Assembly: GCA_964632215.1 (NCBI GenBank)
Contig: CAZWBG010000001.1
Coordinates: 313,336-377,335 of the forward strand
Direction: 5' to 3'
DNA length: 64,000 nt
From: an uncultured Candidatus Saccharibacteria bacterium
GTDB taxonomy: Bacteria > Patescibacteriota > Saccharimonadia > Saccharimonadales > UBA7683
Under the pieces are notes generated by a model. It saw only the letters and a list, made by a program, of their open reading frames with translations. It searched no databases and was not told the origin of the DNA. Both the position numbers and the translations under genes were made by a program. Every line of letters starts with the position of its first letter. The stretch's first letter is position 1. Positions 3,012-54,018 of this stretch are shown here, piece after piece.

Positions 3012-3848
3012 CTATGCCGAGTCCTTTCGTATTACTTCATCCATAGTTTTACCGTTGGCATTTTTCCAGGTTGTCCAGGCGTTTATGTTACCGCCTACAC
3101 AGAATCCTCCAGCATGGTTAGGACTTTTGAAAGTAATGTTCTCGGTAAGCTCATAGTTATTATCTTCTCTCTGTTGAGCCTTTTCGGCCAGTAAAGATCG
3201 GCGCTCAGCTGAGGCGCTGGGATATCTGACAGGAAATAGCGGGCGTTCAGTACCATCAATAACGGAGCCAGCGAGTACCACAAACCGAGAACCCCTAAAC
3301 TGCGCCTTGGCGTCTGTTTTCCTAGTTTTACAGTACCAGACATCGCTTACATCGTCTTGTTTAGTTGAAAATAGACTGAAACCTAACGACTGAGCAATAA
3401 GTGCGATGTCTTCCAGAATCATCTGCAAGCTGTGGAGTTTGAATTCATGAATGTTGTTACGAGATGGAACAGTTTTATTGAGCACCTCCATAGCTGCGGT
3501 TGCTTTCGCCTTTTCTACTGCCAAAGATTCAAGATATTTAATATCACTTTTTTCGAGACTATTGGTAGTAGAGACTATTGCAACAGCCGTATCCCAGAAG
3601 TCTTTATTCTGGTCGTGATTCTTTACACGGTCATAAAAATTTTCTGCTTCGCCAATATAGACTTGGTTCTCGCCAGAATTAATAAGTAAGTATAGAGACG
3701 GTTGTCTTATCCTACTTTCATCCTTGATGTCGTTGAGTTTAATCCTCGGTACCACAAAAGCCTTAACTGCGCTTTCAGAAACCTCAATAATCCGTACCCC
3801 CTCAAGAGTGGCATCAGGCAGATACATTTGAATTAATCTAGGCATCAT
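3012..3848 (-). CDS. GIY-YIG-like nuclease family protein with DUF4357-like C-terminus
   Basis: N-terminal LYLLINSGENQVYIGEAENFYDRVKNHDQNKDFW is GIY-YIG-like. C-terminal FKSPNHAGGFCVGGNINAWTTWKNANGKT matches my memory of DUF4357. I moved the start to ATG 3848, which has AAAGGAA upstream. Confidence 0.6.
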   Translation of the reverse strand: MMPRLIQMYLPDATLEGVRIIEVSESAVKAFVVPRIKLNDIKDESRIRQPSLYLLINSGENQVYIGEAENFYDRVKNHDQNKDFWDTAVAIVSTTNSLEKSDIKYLESLAVEKAKATAAMEVLNKTVPSRNNIHEFKLHSLQMILEDIALIAQSLGFSLFSTKQDDVSDVWYCKTRKTDAKAQFRGSRFVVLAGSVIDGTERPLFPVRYPSASAERRSLLAEKAQQREDNNYELTENITFKSPNHAGGFCVGGNINAWTTWKNANGKTMDEVIRKDSA

Positions 3849-6580: not shown

Positions 6581-6605
6581 ATATAAAAAACTAGGAGAAT
6601 AACAA

Positions 6606-6649
6606 GTTAAGACAGGAGACCGCGTGAGCACACGATCTCCTGTCTTAAC
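6606..6649. repeat. perfect 14-bp inverted repeat with a 16-nt spacer
   Basis: GTTAAGACAGGAGA (6606-6619) and TCTCCTGTCTTAAC (6636-6649). Confidence 0.8.
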
Positions 6650-6764
6650 TCATGATATATCTATCTATAAAAGTTCTTTGGAGTAAATTGATACTCAGCA
6701 CAGGCTATCTCCTAATTATACTATTTTTAGTATATAAAGTCAACTGCTCCAATACGCCGTGTCT

Positions 6765-11515: not shown

Positions 11516-11590
11516 TAGGGTGTGGCCAAGTGGTAAGGCGCCAGGTTCTGGTCCTGGTATTCGGGGGTTCGAATCCCTCCACCCTAGCCA
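11516..11590 (+). tRNA. tRNA-Gln(CTG), CCA encoded
   Basis: Hand-folded cloverleaf: acceptor TAGGGTG/CACCCTA with U1-A72, anticodon loop TTCTGGT, T-loop TTCGAAT. Confidence 0.85.
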
Positions 11591-11595
11591 TTCTA

Positions 11596-11624
11596 TTGAC
11601 AAATAGTAGTTCATATGATATTAT
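11596..11624 (+). promoter_or_regulatory. near-consensus sigma70 promoter TTGACA-17-TATTAT
   Basis: Located 6 nt after the tRNA-Gln 3' end. Followed by a leader hairpin AAGCGATT/AATCGCTT (11633-11653). Confidence 0.6.
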
Positions 11625-11688
11625 ACATTACTAAGCGATTCTAGAAATCGCTTGAACCGGGACAATCCGACTACCCAAGGAGAATACT

Positions 11689-12123
11689 GTGGATCTCGCC
11701 CTCATGGAAGAGAGCCTGAAGACTGCCCCCAGCCCTGGCGCAGCTGCTGCCATCTGGTGGACAACGGTCCTTCGGGACCCCAAGCACGACAACGGTGGTG
11801 ATGACCGAGCCAGCATGGTGAGCCAGATGATGGCTGACATGCTGACGCAGGAGAACCCCGTCGAAGCTGATGCCCTCGAGATCTTCGCTGGTTTCCTCAA
11901 AGAGGACATCGACAAACAAATCGAGGAAGGTCGAGAGGAGATCTCCATCGAAGTGGACTACCACCCCGACCGCATGCTCTCCGACTGCGCCGTGCGTGCC
12001 AACCTCAGGGTTCCCGAGATGGGATGGCCGTGGAAGACCCGCATGTGGGTCACTCCCAAGAGCGTCGAAGTCAGTTACGGCTACGGTGCCGAGGTCAAGA
12101 TCATCTGGGGCCAGGAGAGCTGA
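11689..12123 (+). CDS. hypothetical protein, GC-rich (cassette D)
   Basis: 144 aa, GTG start with AAGGAG upstream. Local G+C is 39/60 in 11701-11760 versus 18/60 in 12241-12300. All frames are open here, as expected for GC-rich DNA. Confidence 0.55.
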   Translation: MDLALMEESLKTAPSPGAAAAIWWTTVLRDPKHDNGGDDRASMVSQMMADMLTQENPVEADALEIFAGFLKEDIDKQIEEGREEISIEVDYHPDRMLSDCAVRANLRVPEMGWPWKTRMWVTPKSVEVSYGYGAEVKIIWGQES

Positions 12124-12155
12124 CACACTACCTGGGTAGTGGATCGAATCCAATC

Positions 12156-12207
12156 GGGTGCATGTGCCAAAGTTGAGCCTTCAAGCTCCTCTCTGTGCAC
12201 TGCACCC
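12156..12207 (+). other. long bipartite GGG...CCC RNA hairpin after the ORF stop
   Basis: GGGUGCA..UGCACCC outer stem encloses the inner hairpin UUGA-GCCU-UCAA. A CCUGG motif lies upstream at 12131-12135. This is the same layout as the hairpins that precede the hammerheads. Confidence 0.5.
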
Positions 12208-12238
12208 GAACTACCATGCATATTTGTAAGATTATTTT

Positions 12239-12261
12239 CAGAACAGAAGTTCTGTTTTTTT
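12239..12261 (+). terminator. intrinsic terminator
   Basis: CAGAAC-agaa-GTTCTG followed by T7. Confidence 0.75.
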
Positions 12262-12302
12262 ATTGGCTTAGATTAGCCTTGGTATCTGATATTATTGAAA
12301 CT

Positions 12303-17733: not shown

Positions 17734-17755
17734 CTTATATACAGTGTAGCTTGTA

Positions 17756-17784
17756 TTGACATTTTTTACAATATCTGCTATAAT
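17756..17784 (+). promoter_or_regulatory. consensus sigma70 promoter TTGACA-17-TATAAT (cassette A)
   Basis: Exact consensus hexamers with a 17-nt spacer, divergent from trmD. Confidence 0.7.
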
Positions 17785-17788
17785 CCCA

Positions 17789-17863
17789 TTAATCTTTTGG
17801 AGTTTTCAGGAGATAGCACCGTGTGCGGAAATATAAGTACGCACCAAACAACCAGGAGAAGAT
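17789..17863 (+). promoter_or_regulatory. conserved 5' leader RNA, copy 1
   Basis: 17789-17852 is 64/64 identical to 18467-18530. It contains the hairpin GUGCG-N12-CGCAC and three GGAG-type boxes. Confidence 0.6.
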
Positions 17864-18262
17864 ATGTTGGATACAGTCACGGAGTCCATCGATCTCGCTG
17901 AAGTCACCCCGGAACAGGAAGTACGAATCAGTATTGATGACAAGCACGCCTTATTGTTTCGTATCGACCCCCCTTCCATCTTCGATGAAAGCTATGTTTT
18001 CGGTATTGAGATCTCACGTCTCAAGCTGATCATGGGTGCATCCGAAGGTCACGTCGGTGGCCAATTCATCGACCTCAATGAGGTCAATATGGATGACATA
18101 ATCGAGGTAGTGGGGTTCATCGTTCCGCCAAGTCCCCATACCAGTGTGCAGCGCAACCTGGAGATCGGAAGAAGCTTCTATATCACGGGCGTTGGCTACG
18201 AGTACCTTCGACAAGAGACGCGCGGAACCATCACCTCCATCGAGGTATATGAAAGGTTTTAG
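17864..18262 (+). CDS. small hypothetical protein, cassette A (paralog of 18542-18955)
   Basis: 132 aa with AGGAGAAG as RBS. Shares IEV..IVP.S..T.V...L..G......ITG.GY......G.I.SIEV with cassette B. Confidence 0.6.
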   Translation: MLDTVTESIDLAEVTPEQEVRISIDDKHALLFRIDPPSIFDESYVFGIEISRLKLIMGASEGHVGGQFIDLNEVNMDDIIEVVGFIVPPSPHTSVQRNLEIGRSFYITGVGYEYLRQETRGTITSIEVYERF

Positions 18263-18291
18263 ACTTCCTGTATACCTTTTCACCCTGGTTG

Positions 18292-18344
18292 GGGCAGTTG
18301 TATCTAAGTAGCACATTTGGTGCTAACAAACGATATGACTGCCC
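18292..18344 (+). other. 13-bp-stem bipartite hairpin preceding hammerhead 1
   Basis: GGGCAGUUGUAUC pairs with GAUAUGACUGCCC, enclosing the inner hairpin UAGCAC-AUUUG-GUGCUA. It covaries with copy 2. Confidence 0.7.
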
Positions 18345-18347
18345 AAA

Positions 18348-18402
18348 ATCACTTCAGTAATTGTGTAATTACTCTGATGAGTTCAAAAGAACGAAAAGTG
18401 AT
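18348..18402 (+). ncRNA. type III hammerhead ribozyme, copy 1
   Basis: AUCACUU C AGUAAUU-GUGU-AAUUACU CUGAUGA GUUC-AAAA-GAAC GAA AAGUGAU. All invariant core positions are present (C3-A9, G12-A14, A15.1-U16.1, C17, G10.1-C11.1). Predicted cleavage is between 18355 and 18356. Confidence 0.85.
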
Positions 18403-18432
18403 GTAAATGATTGATATGGTTTTCGGGTTATA

Positions 18433-18461
18433 TTGACTTATCTTGTAATATCTGCTATAAT
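18433..18461 (+). promoter_or_regulatory. sigma70 promoter TTGACT-17-TATAAT (cassette B)
   Basis: Starts 31 nt after hammerhead 1. There is no terminator between them. Confidence 0.65.
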
Positions 18462-18466
18462 TTAGC

Positions 18467-18541
18467 TTAATCTTTTGGAGTTTTCAGGAGATAGCACCGT
18501 GTGCGGAAATATAAGTACGCACCAAACAACTAGGAGAAATT
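18467..18541 (+). promoter_or_regulatory. conserved 5' leader RNA, copy 2
   Basis: Identical to copy 1 over 64 nt. Confidence 0.6.
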
Positions 18542-18955
18542 ATGCTGGCAACGCAGCAGGCTGTTGATCTTTCGACCTGCAACACGGATCAAGTTATACG
18601 TGTCGTATTCAGTGACAAAGACGGGTTCGGGTCCATCTTCGACTTGAGACTTAAGACACAAGACGACTCGTTCACCGTCAGCGATGACTACCTTACGGGG
18701 GTAGAAATTGCGGTTATTACGACCACCTTCGAAAGCATCGACCCTAAACCAGGTGGCCGCCACCTCAAGAGCAATGAAACCACACGCATGATCGAGGTCA
18801 CAGAGCTCATCGTTCCTGCGAGTGCCTACACCAACGTGTGTCGGCATCTAACAGTTGGTAACTCCTCTCTACCACTCATTACTGGCATAGGATACCTCAG
18901 GCTTGCAGACGAGATCCACGGATCCATTAAGAGCATTGAAGTCAGAGCAGCCTGA
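18542..18955 (+). CDS. small hypothetical protein, cassette B
   Basis: 137 aa. A diverged paralog of cassette A, at roughly one third identity by eye. Confidence 0.6.
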   Translation: MLATQQAVDLSTCNTDQVIRVVFSDKDGFGSIFDLRLKTQDDSFTVSDDYLTGVEIAVITTTFESIDPKPGGRHLKSNETTRMIEVTELIVPASAYTNVCRHLTVGNSSLPLITGIGYLRLADEIHGSIKSIEVRAA

Positions 18956-18980
18956 ACGCTCACAACATATCTCCTGGTCG

Positions 18981-19033
18981 GGGCAACCATGTCTAAACAG
19001 TACATTCGGTACTCGTAAACGATGTGGTTGCCC
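18981..19033 (+). other. 13-bp-stem bipartite hairpin preceding hammerhead 2
   Basis: GGGCAACCAUGUC pairs with GAUGUGGUUGCCC, enclosing the inner hairpin AGUAC-AUUCG-GUACU. Changes relative to copy 1 are compensatory. Confidence 0.7.
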
Positions 19034-19036
19034 AAA

Positions 19037-19091
19037 ATCACTTCAGTAATTGTGTAATTACTCTGATGAGTTCAAAAGAACGAAAAGTGAT
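19037..19091 (+). ncRNA. type III hammerhead ribozyme, copy 2
   Basis: Sequence identical to copy 1. Predicted cleavage is between 19044 and 19045. Confidence 0.85.
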
Positions 19092-19118
19092 GTGAGCACA
19101 AATTAGATAGAAACTAAA

Positions 19119-19145
19119 AGAACCCCGTAAGTGCAGGGTTCTTTT
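19119..19145. terminator. bidirectional intrinsic terminator (cassette B converging on the KH gene)
   Basis: AGAACCC-cgtaagtgca-GGGTTCT flanked by AAAA and TTTT. Confidence 0.6.
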
Positions 19146-19239
19146 ATCACATATAAAGCTCTCTAGTTTTCCTAGACTCGCAAGCGAGCTTTGGTTTTGT
19201 CATGTGTTTATTTTTGTTTGTCCGTGGTGAACATAAGAA

Positions 19240-20334: not shown

Positions 20335-20363
20335 ATTATACAGATGATGACCCCTAAAGTCAA
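20335..20363 (-). promoter_or_regulatory. sigma70 promoter TTGACT-17-TATAAT for rpsP
   Basis: Read on the minus strand. It starts 17 nt downstream of hammerhead 3. Confidence 0.6.
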
Positions 20364-20380
20364 CTGAGGTACACTACTTT

Positions 20381-20435
20381 GTCACTTTTCGCGTTTTTAC
20401 GCTCGTCAGAGTAACCGCACAGTTACTGAAGTGAC
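20381..20435 (-). ncRNA. type III hammerhead ribozyme, copy 3
   Basis: Minus strand: GUCACUU C AGUAACU-GUGC-GGUUACU CUGACGA GCGU-AAAA-ACGC GAA AAGUGAC. The core is intact (N7 = C is allowed). All three stems carry compensatory changes relative to copies 1 and 2. Cleavage falls after the C complementary to 20428. Confidence 0.8.
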
Positions 20436-20437
20436 AC

Positions 20438-20524
20438 GGGTTAGCGGAGAAAAAGATAATAGGGAGAGTCAGTATGAGCTGACATCGAATCCATATTATA
20501 GAACTTTTTCTACGACGCTACCCC
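20438..20524 (-). other. long imperfect GGG...CCC hairpin preceding hammerhead 3
   Basis: GGGGUAGCG pairs with CGCUAACCC, AGAAAAAG with CUUUUUCU, and AUAAUA with UAUUAU. CCUGG lies just upstream. Confidence 0.5.
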
Positions 20525-20587
20525 ATGACCTGGAATCTCCAGGGTTTTACTCGAGTTTAACGCTTCGAGCACGCGTAACGCCCTTAT

Positions 20588-20941
20588 CTAGGAGACTGTC
20601 TTGCTGTTGAGAATGATCTCTCGGACGACACCAGTTCTCCCATTGTTGATAAAAATGATACCGCCCACTCGGAATATCCGAGAGATAACGTTATGTTTAG
20701 GATATCGAGTGACAACACCATGTATGTCAGTGTCCGTCTGAATGGCAACACCGTTGATATTATCCCGAGCAATTTTCGGCTCCTTCACCGTGATGAAGTG
20801 CCAAGTTGAATTTTCCGTACACACGGTGACAACGTCACCGGGGTCAGTACTAGCGAAATCGAGTTCGACTTGACGTATACCATCTCGAACACGATTGTCC
20901 GAGAACCTTGCTACTCCGGATATCCCGCTATGTTCATCCAT
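20588..20941 (-). CDS. small hypothetical protein, cassette C
   Basis: 117 aa with GGAGAT as RBS. Only weak C-terminal resemblance to cassettes A and B. Confidence 0.55.
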   Translation of the reverse strand: MDEHSGISGVARFSDNRVRDGIRQVELDFASTDPGDVVTVCTENSTWHFITVKEPKIARDNINGVAIQTDTDIHGVVTRYPKHNVISRIFRVGGIIFINNGRTGVVREIILNSKTVS

Positions 20942-47562: not shown

Positions 47563-47636
47563 CTTGAATACAATTGTGACTCTATGAATTCAGAAAGGCA
47601 AGCATAAGCATATTGTCGCCTGTCTCGTTCTATGAG

Positions 47637-47690
47637 TCACCGGTACACCCCACCCCTGGTAGGAAAATGGGAAAGAAGGTGTACCGGTGA
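47637..47690. repeat. perfect 13-bp inverted repeat TCACCGGTACACC / GGTGTACCGGTGA (28-nt spacer)
   Basis: A third copy of the TCACCGGTACA core lies at 47768-47778. All are upstream of the 47562 operon start. Confidence 0.75.
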
Positions 47691-47781
47691 CCGAAGAGAG
47701 GAGACAGCTCGAACCCTGATAACAGGGGTCGTAGTCCATCGGCAGATTCTCAAGTCAAGGCCGAACCTGTACCGGTGAACG

Positions 47782-52640: not shown

Positions 52641-52730
52641 ATTACGTCTGGTTGGTTCAGGTATGGTGAGGCTACCACCTTCAGCTAACCATACAAAAAG
52701 TTCAAGTAAATTCTGTAGCTCCGCATCAAC
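52641..52730. repeat. intergenic repeat family, copy A
   Basis: Shares ...ccatacaaaaagttYaagtaWattctgtag... with copies B and C. The minus strand reads as a peptide remnant: DAELQNLLELFVWLAEGGSLTIPEPT. Confidence 0.6.
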
Positions 52731-52735
52731 TAAAG

Positions 52736-52759
52736 AATCCTGTCAAGCGCAGGATTTTT
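52736..52759 (+). terminator. intrinsic terminator
   Basis: AATCCTG-tcaagcg-CAGGATT followed by TTT. Confidence 0.6.
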
Positions 52760-52770
52760 AGTTGATCTTG

Positions 52771-52882
52771 GGCTGACGAGCCGCAAACTCCGTCAAGTGA
52801 TCCGCCCAGGCGGAGAACGGGTAGTTTGGCGAAGCGAGCACGCCATAGCGGAGGAGCGAAGCGCGTCTCCTTACCCGCACCA
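52771..52882 (+). other. GC-rich structured element ending in an 18-nt copy of the tRNA-Gly(GCC) 3' end
   Basis: 52865-52882 (GTCTCCTTACCCGCACCA) is identical to the T-stem, acceptor and CCA of the tRNA-Gly at 47831-47906, in the opposite orientation. Upstream ACGGGTA can pair with TACCCG(C). Several GC hairpins are present. Confidence 0.55.
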
Positions 52883-52895
52883 AGTAGGTCAATTC

Positions 52896-52916
52896 GGACA
52901 CTCCGGCGTCCTTTTT
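52896..52916 (+). terminator. probable intrinsic terminator
   Basis: GGACAC-tccg-GCGTCC followed by T5. Confidence 0.5.
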
Positions 52917-52975
52917 AGTGTTGTTAGCCTGTGTTAAAATTAGTTAGGATAAACTTAATAAAAAGGAGTATAGGA

Positions 52976-53365
52976 ATGGCTAAATATATCGATGGATTTG
53001 TACTTGTAGTGCCTAAAGGAAAAGAAGCTGAGTACCAAAAAATGGCAGAAGAAGGGCGAGATTCTTGGATGAAGCATGGTGCGCTTCAATACTTTGAATG
53101 TAGAGGTGATGATCTTAAACAGCAGGAAATGGGTGACCAAAAATCACGATCTTTTGAGGAGATGGCTGGCGCTAACGGGAATGAAAATGTCTGGTTTTCA
53201 TTCATTGTTTTCGAATCAAAAGAGCACCGCGATGAGGTAAACAAGAAAGTTATGGCTGAGATGGATGAATCATATAGCGATCAGACTGACTTTGAAATGC
53301 CGAACGATATGAAGAAAATGGCGTACGGAGGATTTGAAGTAGCAGTTGAAGGTCAAAAGGCTTAG
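52976..53365 (+). CDS. DUF1428 family protein
   Basis: Begins MAKYIDGFVLVVPKGKEAEYQKMAEE...HGALQYFEC. AAGGAG RBS. Confidence 0.65.
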   Translation: MAKYIDGFVLVVPKGKEAEYQKMAEEGRDSWMKHGALQYFECRGDDLKQQEMGDQKSRSFEEMAGANGNENVWFSFIVFESKEHRDEVNKKVMAEMDESYSDQTDFEMPNDMKKMAYGGFEVAVEGQKA

Positions 53366-53421
53366 TTTGCCGAACCTTTTCTGTACTTTGTCGCTTCCCA
53401 CCTAGCTTTGGGAGTATAAAA

Positions 53422-53480
53422 CTACCGCCTTCAACTACCCATACAAAAAGTTTAAGTATATTCTGTAGAGTTGCACCGAT
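53422..53480. repeat. intergenic repeat family, copy B
   Basis: ctaccgccttcaactacccatacaaaaagtttaagtatattctgtagagttgcaccgat. Confidence 0.6.
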
Positions 53481-53532
53481 TTAGTCAATCTGTCGAATAT
53501 GCCGTTAAGTGTGTTTTTGTTATTATAAGCAT

Positions 53533-53733
53533 ATGAATACACCATTACCAACAAGCATAGGACGGCCAGCAACGAGTGCACTTGAAGCTGCGAATATTAC
53601 TAGCCTTGAAGATTTAAGTAGAATGACCGAAAAAGAACTTGCAAATCTTCATGGTGTAGGACCGAAAGCAATTGGCATATTGAAGCAATGTTTAGATGAA
53701 AATAAAATGTGTCTACTAACGCTAAAAGTATGA
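53533..53733 (+). CDS. small helix-hairpin-helix DNA-binding protein
   Basis: LEDLSRMTEKELANLHGVGPKAIGIL is an HhH motif. Confidence 0.5.
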   Translation: MNTPLPTSIGRPATSALEAANITSLEDLSRMTEKELANLHGVGPKAIGILKQCLDENKMCLLTLKV

Positions 53734-53911
53734 AGCCTAAAAAAGCCGAGTTAAAGGAAAAGTTGTAGACGGACAGCCTGACGGTTACTGGGAGTGGTAT
53801 CGTCTTGATGGGATGCTAAAGCGTTCTGGCCACTTTAAATTAGGTGAAGCGATCGGTGAATGGACTACCTATAGTGATAAAGGCGAGGTTTATAAAGTAA
53901 CTAATAGATAA
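53730..53911 (+). pseudogene. MORN/YwqK-like repeat protein, frameshifted in the A6 run 53739-53744
   Basis: The downstream frame reads VVDGQPDGYWEWYRLDGMLKRSGHFKLGEAIGEWTTY. One extra A would join it to ATG 53730. Confidence 0.5.
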
Positions 53912-53926
53912 TCTTATTTTTTTATT

Positions 53927-54018
53927 ATTAGTCGGTTCGGGTAGTTTCAGTGAAGGTCGGTCTGCATCAATAATGATCCACTCAGAAAGTTTAAGTATAT
54001 TCTGTAGCTCCGCACCAA
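53927..54018. repeat. intergenic repeat family, copy C
   Basis: attagtcggttcgggtagtttcagtgaagg...cagaaagtttaagtatattctgtagctccgcacc. Confidence 0.6.

Follow-up and report, generated by a model that had tools for sequence, protein, structure and literature searches.

A sense-strand RNA hairpin preceding predicted type III hammerhead ribozymes in a Saccharibacteria chromosome and its possible role at mRNA 3' ends

Introduction

Hammerhead ribozymes of prophages are described as type III motifs that lie in intergenic regions after single small genes of varying identity, with a proposed role in cutting transcripts into gene-length mRNAs, according to the passages of Perreault et al. 2011 (PMC3088659) on which we draw. 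The same passages call the biological role of most bacterial hammerheads still unclear. The window analysed here, a stretch of 64,000 nucleotides from an uncultured Candidatus Saccharibacteria bacterium (contig CAZWBG010000001.1), holds gene cassettes that resemble the prophage arrangement of PMC3088659 in that putative type III hammerheads follow individual small genes. Unlike the setting given in those passages, the window cassettes lie in a CPR chromosome, within the housekeeping cluster rnc-rpsP-KH-trmD and away from any phage genes, and each gene has a promoter of its own. They also have a long hairpin, conserved or analogous, 10-12 nt before the predicted cut and a strand complementary to the ribosome-binding site (anti-RBS strand), neither of which appears in the passages of PMC3088659 used here. 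Our literature searches returned no report joining the hammerhead with Saccharibacteria, CPR or TM7.

Stem-loops that stabilise 3' ends are known from REP hairpins, from the cry1A 'positive retroregulator' and from T7 sites, where RNase III leaves hairpins at the 3' end. The hairpin described here is like them in that the mature 3' end would carry a stable stem-loop to stall 3'-to-5' exonucleases, and its bipartite helix with an internal loop loosely resembles that of T7 R1.1. It is unlike them in that the end would be made by a ribozyme predicted to act in cis, and not by termination or RNase III, and would carry a 2',3'-cyclic phosphate. Type I toxin mRNAs are inhibited by folding back on themselves, through fbi/tac in hok and through a long-distance interaction in aapA1. 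As predicted for our cassettes, a small stand-alone gene has its ribosome-binding site hidden by a helix between the 5' and 3' ends, and 3' processing is part of the logic; however, the products of the window ORFs, at 117-144 aa, are no short peptides, and we identified no antisense RNA. Pairing between untranslated regions is also found in the icaR mRNA of Staphylococcus aureus, in which the 3'UTR motif UCCCCUG pairs with the Shine-Dalgarno sequence (PMC3868564), and in the hbs mRNA of Bacillus subtilis, which has a 5'-3' UTR helix of 14 bp (PMC5737220). The likeness is in the predicted pairing of CCUGG with CCAGGAG (7-9 bp) and in a 14-nt anti-RBS strand of sister cassettes, but the window motif, predicted from sequence, abuts a long hairpin and a ribozyme and recurs in several unrelated cassettes.

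Results

Cassette A has a predicted promoter on the forward strand (17756..17784; TTGACA-17-TATAAT with a TG extension, 12/12 consensus), which is repeated (repeat D6) at cassette B (18433..18461, forward strand, 11/12 consensus). ORF A (17864..18262, forward strand) is an orphan of 132 aa, and ORF B (18542..18955, forward strand, 137 aa) is 32% identical to it. ORF C (20588..20941, reverse strand, 117 aa) belongs to a second family of orphans, with relatives among the ORFs of the loci L002 and L023, and ORF D (11689..12123, forward strand, 144 aa) matches phrog_8937 and has 60% GC versus 44% in the window. When compared with 5.8 billion proteins, ORF A matched itself alone, the homologue search with ORF C returned the query protein alone, and nothing in Pfam, PHROG, PADLOC or NCBIfam matched ORFs A, B and C. 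A HMMER profile search with A and B retrieved P0124 as the one true relative, besides a single spurious low-complexity protein, and the AlphaFold model of ORF A (pLDDT 35) was unusable. Exact-protein look-ups of ORFs A and B gave no contigs, and the same-species contigs end at the repeated hammerhead, so that no strain variation could be read from them. The viral collection contained no relative of ORF D and no match to the hammerhead pattern.

The cassettes are situated at strain-variable hotspots (trmD|KH and rnc|rpsP), where the gene found at a given site differs between close relatives, and divergence is far greater in the cassette ORFs than in the flanks and UTRs. In the L002/L023 species, ORF alleles with no more than 48% identity share one and the same hairpin. 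As read from the sequence, the cassette layout appears to be a strong own promoter, a structured 5'UTR, an orphan ORF, an anti-RBS strand, a long hairpin and a type III hammerhead. Between hammerhead B and the convergent KH gene lies a terminator-like palindrome, AAAAGAACCCCGUAAGUGCAGGGUUCUUUUAU (19115..19146), which the terminator scan calls on the minus strand only and which, in our reading, probably terminates the plus strand (cassette B) as well.

The 53-nt element, present on the forward strand in cassette A (copy 1, 18292..18344) and cassette B (copy 2, 18981..19033), is a presumably transcribed, sense-strand RNA hairpin. The preliminary description had claimed that both copies fold into a 13-bp outer stem and an inner hairpin, and this fold, with two G-U pairs in each copy, was reproduced with z-scores of about -6: copy 1, in which a 4x6 internal loop separates the outer stem from a 6-bp inner hairpin, had a free energy of -26.8 kcal/mol (z = -6.4) and copy 2 one of -26.1 kcal/mol (z = -6.2), the inner hairpins being of 5-6 bp, and 0/200 shuffles were equally stable. 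Changes compensated on the partner strand had also been claimed; between the copies, outer pairs 6 and 7 are altered on both sides, pairs 8-11 one-sidedly via G-U, and one inner pair shows a compensated change from C-G to U-A. A third, independent homologue from another Saccharibacteria genome (L041, 3419-3474) keeps 13/13 outer pairs. Across the 13 outer pairs of A, B and L041, which are the alignable copies (n=3, two of them paralogues in one genome), every cell with letters on both sides is paired, with four two-sided changes and five one-sided ones via G-U, compared to just 33-50% of cells in controls with slid partners. The compensatory changes together with the conservation support the view that the RNA is functional.

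The sense strand is more stable than the antisense strand because of the G-U pairs (-28.2 vs -23.4 and -27.8 vs -23.1 kcal/mol), and as these pairs are available on the sense strand only, the element is one of RNA. A covariance model of the A/B hairpin (R2) scored 72.6 bits on the sense and 20.7 bits on the antisense strand of copy 1, 71.3 bits on copy 2, and overall 60-73 bits on the sense strand and about 20 bits on the antisense. A search of 200 kb of related loci with R2 yielded no copies beyond these, and no curated Rfam family matched 18284-18346 or 18973-19035 at E <= 5.

Equivalents of the hairpin had been claimed for cassettes C and D as well, and hairpins do occur there in the same position: a long imperfect one of 87 nt in C (20438..20524, reverse strand, z = -4.5), with a small local hairpin (CCUGG-AGAUU-CCAGG; 20528..20542, reverse strand) in front of it, and one in D (12156..12207, forward strand, z = -5.6), which is more stable as antisense (-32.6 vs -27.5 kcal/mol for sense). 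Both are missed by R2 at E <= 10 and are positional analogues of the A/B hairpins, without demonstrable homology. A single alignable family of the C, D and L002-type hairpins was dropped, as R2 gave no additional copies in the related loci. The placement of the hairpin directly upstream of each hammerhead was confirmed in A, B and C, but the D hairpin is followed by an intrinsic terminator (12239-12261) and no hammerhead. Cassette D, with a hairpin, a predicted 5'-3' helix and a terminator but no ribozyme, suggests that the role of the hairpin is not tied to the ribozyme.

Type III hammerheads were predicted at 18347..18404 (A) and, identical to it, at 19036..19093 (B), both on the forward strand, and at 20379..20436 (C) on the reverse strand, with cuts predicted after C18355, C19044 and the C at 20428. 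A model built on the three-helix structure with stems I and II looped and III open (R1) scored 84.6, 84.6 and 77.7 bits on them and 68.8-84.6 bits on CPR-type copies, a range that includes 12 training copies. The core CUGANGA...GAAA (CUGAUGA...GAAA in A), with A15.1-U16.1, occurs in all three and in L041, position 17 at the cleavage site being a nucleotide other than G, namely C (A in L041), and stems I and III have compensatory changes between the window and L041. With RF00008, A and B scored 29.1 and 42.8 bits, both below the gathering score of 48.5, and the Rfam search in gathering mode gave no RF00008 match; the short 4-bp stem II with its 4-nt loop is penalised as a deletion. On the basis of core and helices, the window elements appear to be type III hammerheads, for which self-cleavage is predicted. 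Hammerhead C adjoins the rpsP promoter (20363..20335) on the upstream side.

The distance from the hairpin end to the predicted cut is 11 nt in A, B and L041, 10 nt in C, and 10-12 nt in L001, L006 and L008. Among related CPR hammerheads of other genomes, 9/12 are preceded, within about 45 nt, by a very stable, unrelated hairpin, the best 70-nt fold there ranking in the lowest 0.6% of its locus background; the hairpin is 2-6 nt from hammerhead stem III in 7/12 cases and 20-75 nt away from the hammerhead in L002, L013 and L017. The L002-type hairpin resembles the A/B/L041 geometry (12 bp, loop, 5 bp), and the hairpins ahead of related hammerheads have no common sequence or loop motif. The recurrence of unrelated strong hairpins before related hammerheads supports a functional RNA. 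The suggestion that the hairpin becomes the 3'-terminal structure after cleavage fits this geometry, with the sense strand, no U tract and a constant 10-12 nt to the cut in A, B, C, L041, L001, L006 and L008, the self-cleavage itself being a prediction.

A CCUGG motif precedes all four hairpins, as the preliminary description had it, against a window base rate of 0.0008 per nt per strand (about 0.03 per 35 nt). However, the motif does not stand by itself. The folds of A, B, L041 and D predict that it pairs at long range with the Shine-Dalgarno region of its own mRNA and so makes up one strand of a helix, which is new here. In the full-transcript fold of mRNA A, CAACCAGG (17849..17856, forward strand), overlapping the Shine-Dalgarno AGGAG at 17854-17858, pairs with CCUGGUUG (18284..18291, forward strand), which holds CCUGG, with a probability of 0.94-1.0. 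In mRNA B, ACUAGGAGA (18529..18537, forward strand, including the Shine-Dalgarno) pairs with the CCUGG-bearing UCUCCUGGU (18970..18978, forward strand) with a probability of about 1.0. For cassette D a pairing probability of 0.7-1.0 is predicted between a 5'UTR strand with the Shine-Dalgarno AAGGAG (11665..11682, forward strand) and a 3'UTR strand containing CCUGG (12128..12144, forward strand), and the helix predicted in L041 has a probability of about 1 and an A-U to G-C compensation. These folds of A, B, L041 and D thus have a predicted 3'UTR motif complementary to the own Shine-Dalgarno, as in icaR. The hairpin and the closing helix are 0-3 nt apart. In the sister cassette family, the L023 and L050 alleles have a perfect 14-nt complement of the Shine-Dalgarno and AUG between hairpin and hammerhead. 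Compared with shuffled RBS windows, the duplex energy gave p values of 0.016 (A), 0.07 (B), 0.03 (L041), 0.004 (L023) and 0.10 (D); the complementarity was not significant in C, L008, L012, L016, L001 and L017, and the closing helix is therefore not universal.

Discussion

We put the probability at about 0.5 that the hairpin is a 3'-terminal exonuclease block and a clamp of a ribozyme-trimmed mRNA closed end to end. This reading builds on the structure of the hairpin, its compensated conservation and sense specificity, the fixed distance to the cut and the complementarity to the ribosome-binding site. The hammerhead would cut 10-12 nt past the hairpin and discard all RNA downstream, which would leave an mRNA with a very stable 3' stem-loop, followed by a short tail with a 2',3'-cyclic phosphate at its end. 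The terminal hairpin would then block 3'-to-5' exonucleases and clamp the adjoining closing helix of CCUGG with CCAGG/Shine-Dalgarno, and the processed message would be closed end to end, long-lived and partly masked at its ribosome-binding site; self-cleavage in vivo, stabilisation and an effect on translation are the steps that we infer. In A and B the anti-RBS strand is on the 5' side of the hairpin and would be shielded by it from trimming, while in the L002 type the strand is on the 3' side, so that trimming back to the hairpin would remove it. A terminator hairpin lies about 25 nt after hammerhead B and a terminator follows the D hairpin, and a dedicated 3' stabiliser therefore looks partly redundant.

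A wider form of this reading, which we offer tentatively and consider doubtful, is that the promoter and structured 5'UTR together with the anti-RBS strand, hairpin and hammerhead are a portable CPR expression frame, in which hyper-variable orphan ORFs would be exchanged at fixed hotspots, and ribozyme and hairpin would make an exonuclease-resistant panhandle mRNA with its ribosome-binding site masked until a signal or 3' trimming. In a more radical variant, the two identical hammerheads on either side of the 689-nt unit B (cuts after 18355 and 19044) could set the unit free with a 5'-OH and a cyclic phosphate at its ends, which stem III would hold together for closure into a circular mRNA.

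Another explanation, which has something in its favour and which we still regard as unlikely, is that a protein recognises or processes the hairpin, which would be either a T7 R1.1-type RNase III signal or a site for an RNA-binding protein such as the cassette product or the neighbouring KH protein. The bipartite geometry (13 bp, asymmetric 4x6 internal loop, 6 bp) is kept in A, B and L041 and is similar in the L002 type, the internal-loop sequences UCUAA and AAACGAU are the same in A and B, and the D hairpin is present without a hammerhead. Two stems of 13 + 6 bp with a 4x6 loop are a loose fit to the approximately two helical turns of stacked dsRNA of the T7 R1.1 type. A ribozyme 11 nt away would make cleavage by RNase III superfluous. 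The lack of a shared sequence or loop motif among the hairpins before related hammerheads argues against a protein site, and a cognate pair of product and RNA is hard to reconcile with one L002/L023 hairpin serving such divergent alleles.

The short spacing to stem III in 7/12 cases would also suit a folding insulator that stops the ORF or the anti-RBS strand from mispairing with the hammerhead, and for a few shuffled hairpins the predicted folding cost of the hammerhead climbs to 7-8 kcal/mol. Nevertheless, we think such a role quite improbable. In the thermodynamic model the cost was 1.4, 2.0 and 2.4 kcal/mol for the wild type, 0.9, 2.3 and 0.4 kcal/mol with the hairpin deleted and on average 2.1, 2.4 and 2.6 kcal/mol with it shuffled, and deletion thus left the cost unchanged or lower. 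In addition, D has the hairpin without a ribozyme, and 19 bp upheld by compensatory changes exceed the needs of insulation.

The variable hotspots with different genes at the same site in close relatives, and ORFs far more diverged than their flanks, might instead suggest a DNA element, namely a cruciform or an attC-like single-strand recombination site bounding mobile cassettes. We rejected the attC and cruciform readings as very improbable: the G-U pairs are good on the sense strand only and leave A-C mismatches on the other, no R''/L'' or L'/R' boxes with a GTTRRRY/RYYYAAC core were found in 18284-18347 or 18973-19036, no recombinase domain and no integrase, transposase or reverse transcriptase was among the ORFs scanned (9.7-24 kb), and the empty and filled sites have other junctions. 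A transcription terminator or attenuator, which a strong, GC-rich stem where an ORF ends might suggest, is scarcely credible and was rejected, as no U tract follows (tails AAAAUCAC in A and B, GUGUCAC in C and GAACUACC in D) and tails such as AAAAUCAC, GUGUCACU and GAACUACC are not those of intrinsic terminators, the terminator scan did not call the hairpins, canonical U-tract terminators are in use nearby, and if transcription ended at the hairpin, the conserved ribozyme farther downstream would serve no purpose.

Cassette ORFs that outpace the divergence of their UTRs at strain-variable hotspots seem to point to diversifying selection in this episymbiont lineage. The setting of the ribozyme is simple, repeated and testable, with one promoter, ORF, hairpin and cut in a Saccharibacteria-like chromosome of very small genome size. 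If it is true that the hairpin is a stabilising 3' end produced by self-cleavage, these cassettes would offer a clear example from nature of bacterial mRNAs whose 3' ends are set by a ribozyme, and one in which the 3' end made by the ribozyme would be coupled with 5'-3' masking of the ribosome-binding site.

Results

Both 53-nt regions upstream of the hammerheads of cassettes A and B (18292-18344 and 18981-19033) fold as the preliminary description claimed, into an outer stem of 13 bp and, past an asymmetric internal loop, an inner hairpin of 5-6 bp. Their energies are -26.8 and -26.1 kcal/mol (z = -6.4 and -6.2; 0 of 200 shuffles were as stable), and a scan of the entire window ranks them with its strongest local folds. 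Two G-U pairs in each make the plus strand about 5 kcal/mol more stable than the minus strand. Very stable intergenic hairpins were also seen at 6601-6660 (-37 kcal/mol per 60 nt) and 47636-47695 (-33), the latter near tRNA genes and including CCCCUGG.

ORF A and ORF B (32% identity) have almost no relatives, and when 1.8 billion representatives were searched with a profile, P0124 was the one real match. Its gene occupies the corresponding chromosomal site in a different Saccharibacteria MAG (locus L041), adjoining trmD and on the opposite strand. Downstream of it come CCUGG, a hairpin at 3419-3474 and a hammerhead at 3476-3533 that scores 68.8 bits, with 11 nt from the hairpin end to the cleavage site as in A and B. 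Conservation in a homologous locus had been proposed as a check on the structure, and L041 retains the pairing with compensatory changes. In the alignment of A, B and L041, the only three alignable hairpins, the outer helix is paired in every cell with letters on both sides; 4 of its 13 pairs are changed on both sides and five on one side via G-U, and two pairs of the inner helix are compensated. As a control the 3' partners were shifted by 1-3 columns, and just 33-50% of the cells then paired. R2, the covariance model of these hairpins, scores 60-73 bits on the sense strand versus about 20 bits on the antisense strand. The hairpin is sense-strand RNA selected for pairing. It matches no Rfam family, and R2 found no further copies over 200 kb of related loci, cassettes C and D and all other hammerhead-adjacent hairpins included, so A, B and L041 form one small family and the remaining hairpins are analogues.

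By core-motif scan the window has three hammerheads, of which two are on the plus strand and the third is on the minus strand. Rfam recognised two as type III (42.8 and 29.1 bits), neither reaching the gathering score of 48.5, and R1, a covariance model built on 12 CPR-type copies from genome and metagenome scans, scored the window hammerheads at 77.7-84.6 bits. The predicted cuts fall 3' of C18355, C19044 and, on the minus strand, the C at 20428. A near-consensus rpsP promoter (20335-20363, minus strand) begins only about 15 nt past hammerhead C, so the ribozyme keeps the cassette transcript apart from the ribosomal-protein operon. Cassette B (18356-19044) is bracketed by a pair of identical hammerheads at a distance of 689 nt. 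Read-through from promoter A would free this unit with 5'-OH and cyclic-phosphate ends, which stem III could bring close to each other, a geometry that is the same as in circularising hammerhead RNAs. A metagenome contig (L014) likewise carries identical hammerheads at 643-706 and 1319-1382, 676 nt apart and with identical upstream sequence; this pair scores 24 bits with R1 and is unrelated to the CPR type; it may represent a tandem repeat or else a circular hammerhead element.

Upstream of each of 12 distinct CPR-type hammerheads, the most stable 70-nt fold whose end lies no more than about 45 nt away was ranked against every 70-nt window of that locus. Nine of the 12 upstream folds were in the lowest 0.6% of the locus background and one more was at 1.2%; cassette C escaped detection only through the length of its hairpin, 87 nt. 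Downstream controls were unremarkable except for a few strong terminator-like folds. The hammerhead-adjacent hairpins have no common sequence, and their association with the hammerhead is real, being positional and structural rather than sequence-based. The distance to the predicted cleavage site is short and fixed, with the hairpin 3' end 10-12 nt from it in A, B, C, L041 and the related loci L001, L006 and L008; the hairpin is farther away in L002, L013 and L017.

Every cassette is a unit in which a near-consensus promoter of its own and a structured 5'UTR precede an orphan ORF, followed by a hairpin and a hammerhead; transcription start sites were guessed via promoter matches. Identity between A and B is 88.6% over the promoter and 5'UTR, 60.9% over the ORF nucleotides (32% for amino acids), 72% over CCUGG and the hairpin, where every outer-stem change preserves a pair, and 100% over the hammerhead. 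Among strains of another species carrying a sister cassette family (L002, L023 and L050), KH is 98% identical in nucleotide sequence, trmD 96% and the cassette UTRs 93-94%, and the ORF reaches only 48% at the protein level. The cassette ORFs (17864-18955 in the window; L002, L023 and L050) diverge far faster than the UTRs and the neighbouring housekeeping genes, a pattern that suggests diversifying selection or allele swapping. Both ORF families are served by the same type of 5'UTR, which has two common hairpins (17791-17848; L041 2923-2985; L002), one of them at the extreme 5' end; the second covaries between the window (GUGCG...CGCAC) and L041 (GCGCG...CGCGC).

Predicted transcripts of roughly 565 nt, running from about +1 up to the cleavage site, were folded thermodynamically over their full length. 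In A, B and L041 the CCUGG stretch is predicted to pair with CCAGG/AGGAG of the ribosome-binding region with a probability of 0.94-1.0. The predicted closing helix joins 17849-17856 with 18284-18291 in A, 18529-18537 with 18970-18978 in B (with a U-G pair where B reads CUAGG) and CAGCCAG with CUGGCUG in L041 (with A-U to G-C compensation); in D, 11665-11682 would pair with 12128-12144, covering AAGGAG. The sister family has UCAUAGGAUUCUCC within the 21-nt spacer separating hairpin from hammerhead, which in two of three alleles is perfectly complementary over 14 nt to GGAGAAUCCUAUGA (Shine-Dalgarno plus AUG) and in the third has one mismatch. Against shuffled ribosome-binding windows, which keep mononucleotide content only, duplex energy gave p = 0.004-0.03 for L023, A and L041 and p = 0.06-0.12 for B, L006, D and L002, and no signal in C, L008, L012, L016, L001 and L017. 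The closing helix is therefore frequent and not universal. In cassette C, CCUGG forms a small local hairpin (20542..20528) instead. Per 35 nt of the window, CCTGG has a base rate of about 0.03. A strand complementary to the ribosome-binding site is shown to adjoin the hairpin.

Cassettes C and D do have the hairpins ascribed to them (20524..20438, minus strand, z = -4.5; 12156-12207, z = -5.6), but no hammerhead follows that of D by Rfam, core-motif scan or R1. An ordinary terminator (12239-12261) follows instead, and the D hairpin is more stable on the antisense strand. That D has the hairpin and the closing helix, with a terminator replacing the ribozyme, speaks for a hairpin that serves the mRNA rather than the ribozyme. 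Cassette D (11516-12262) has 60% GC versus 44% for the window, matches PHROG 8937, lies directly 3' of a tRNA gene (11516-11587) and looks like foreign, possibly phage-derived DNA.

The window is part of a CPR bacterial chromosome, with rnc, rpsP, the KH-domain gene and trmD all on the minus strand and its nearest relatives among MAGs that carry the label Candidatus Saccharibacteria or Nomurabacteria. The trmD-KH gap (17734-19100 in the window; loci L021-L059) is a strain-variable hotspot whose contents differ from one close relative to the next. Nothing occupies it in L040, L031 and L043; it holds a Fic gene in L033 and L034 and, in L042, an unrelated small gene ending in a plain terminator, and one or two hammerhead cassettes occupy it in the window, L002/L021, L023, L050, L004 and L041, the last also having an acetyltransferase gene between the cassette gene and KH. 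In L034, UAUAUGUGA is repeated on both sides of the Fic insert. A conserved structured element, AAGCUCGCUUGCGAGUCUAGGAAAACUAGAGAGCUU, stands just past the KH gene and ahead of its terminator (19155-19191, minus strand), with near-identical sequence in L040, L031, L034 and L042. Other units of ORF, hairpin and hammerhead occur at a second hotspot, bounded by topA and a sigma-like gene (L006, L008, L012 and L016). Elsewhere in the window, a 47-nt direct repeat (family D3; three copies within 52672-54007, spaced 750 and 539 nt) may be another array of repeated units.

Discussion

We infer all functional steps of the mechanism proposed here. Hammerhead self-cleavage would trim the transcript, so that the hairpin becomes the 3'-terminal structure, trailed by some 11 nt with a cyclic phosphate at the end. 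There it would block 3' exonucleases, and it could stack beside the 5'-3' helix. A protein or RNase III site was also weighed as the role of the hairpin. Had it been a folding insulator for the ribozyme, its loss should have made the hammerhead costlier to form, but deletion or shuffling does not raise the predicted cost (wild type 1.4-2.4, deleted 0.4-2.3, shuffled means 2.1-2.6 kcal/mol); this thermodynamic test agrees with cassette D that the hairpin serves the mRNA. A DNA recombination site was considered as well, and no gene for an integrase, transposase or reverse transcriptase lies near the window cassettes. As for a terminator, the hairpin has no terminator features.

Perreault et al. 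(PMC3088659) found prophage hammerheads flanking single genes and proposed that transcripts are processed to gene-length mRNAs, with the function left open. Pairing between 5' and 3' UTRs is documented in icaR (PMC3868564) and hbs (PMC5737220), where it masks the Shine-Dalgarno sequence or protects the leader. In the literature we found no report of Saccharibacteria hammerheads, nor of any bacterial hammerhead linked to a conserved hairpin or an anti-RBS strand. We class the module as joining three known kinds, the 3' stabilising stem-loop, the ribozyme-processed mRNA and 5'-3' UTR pairing, in a new combination. Its outcome would be a closed, stable mRNA with the ribosome-binding site masked.
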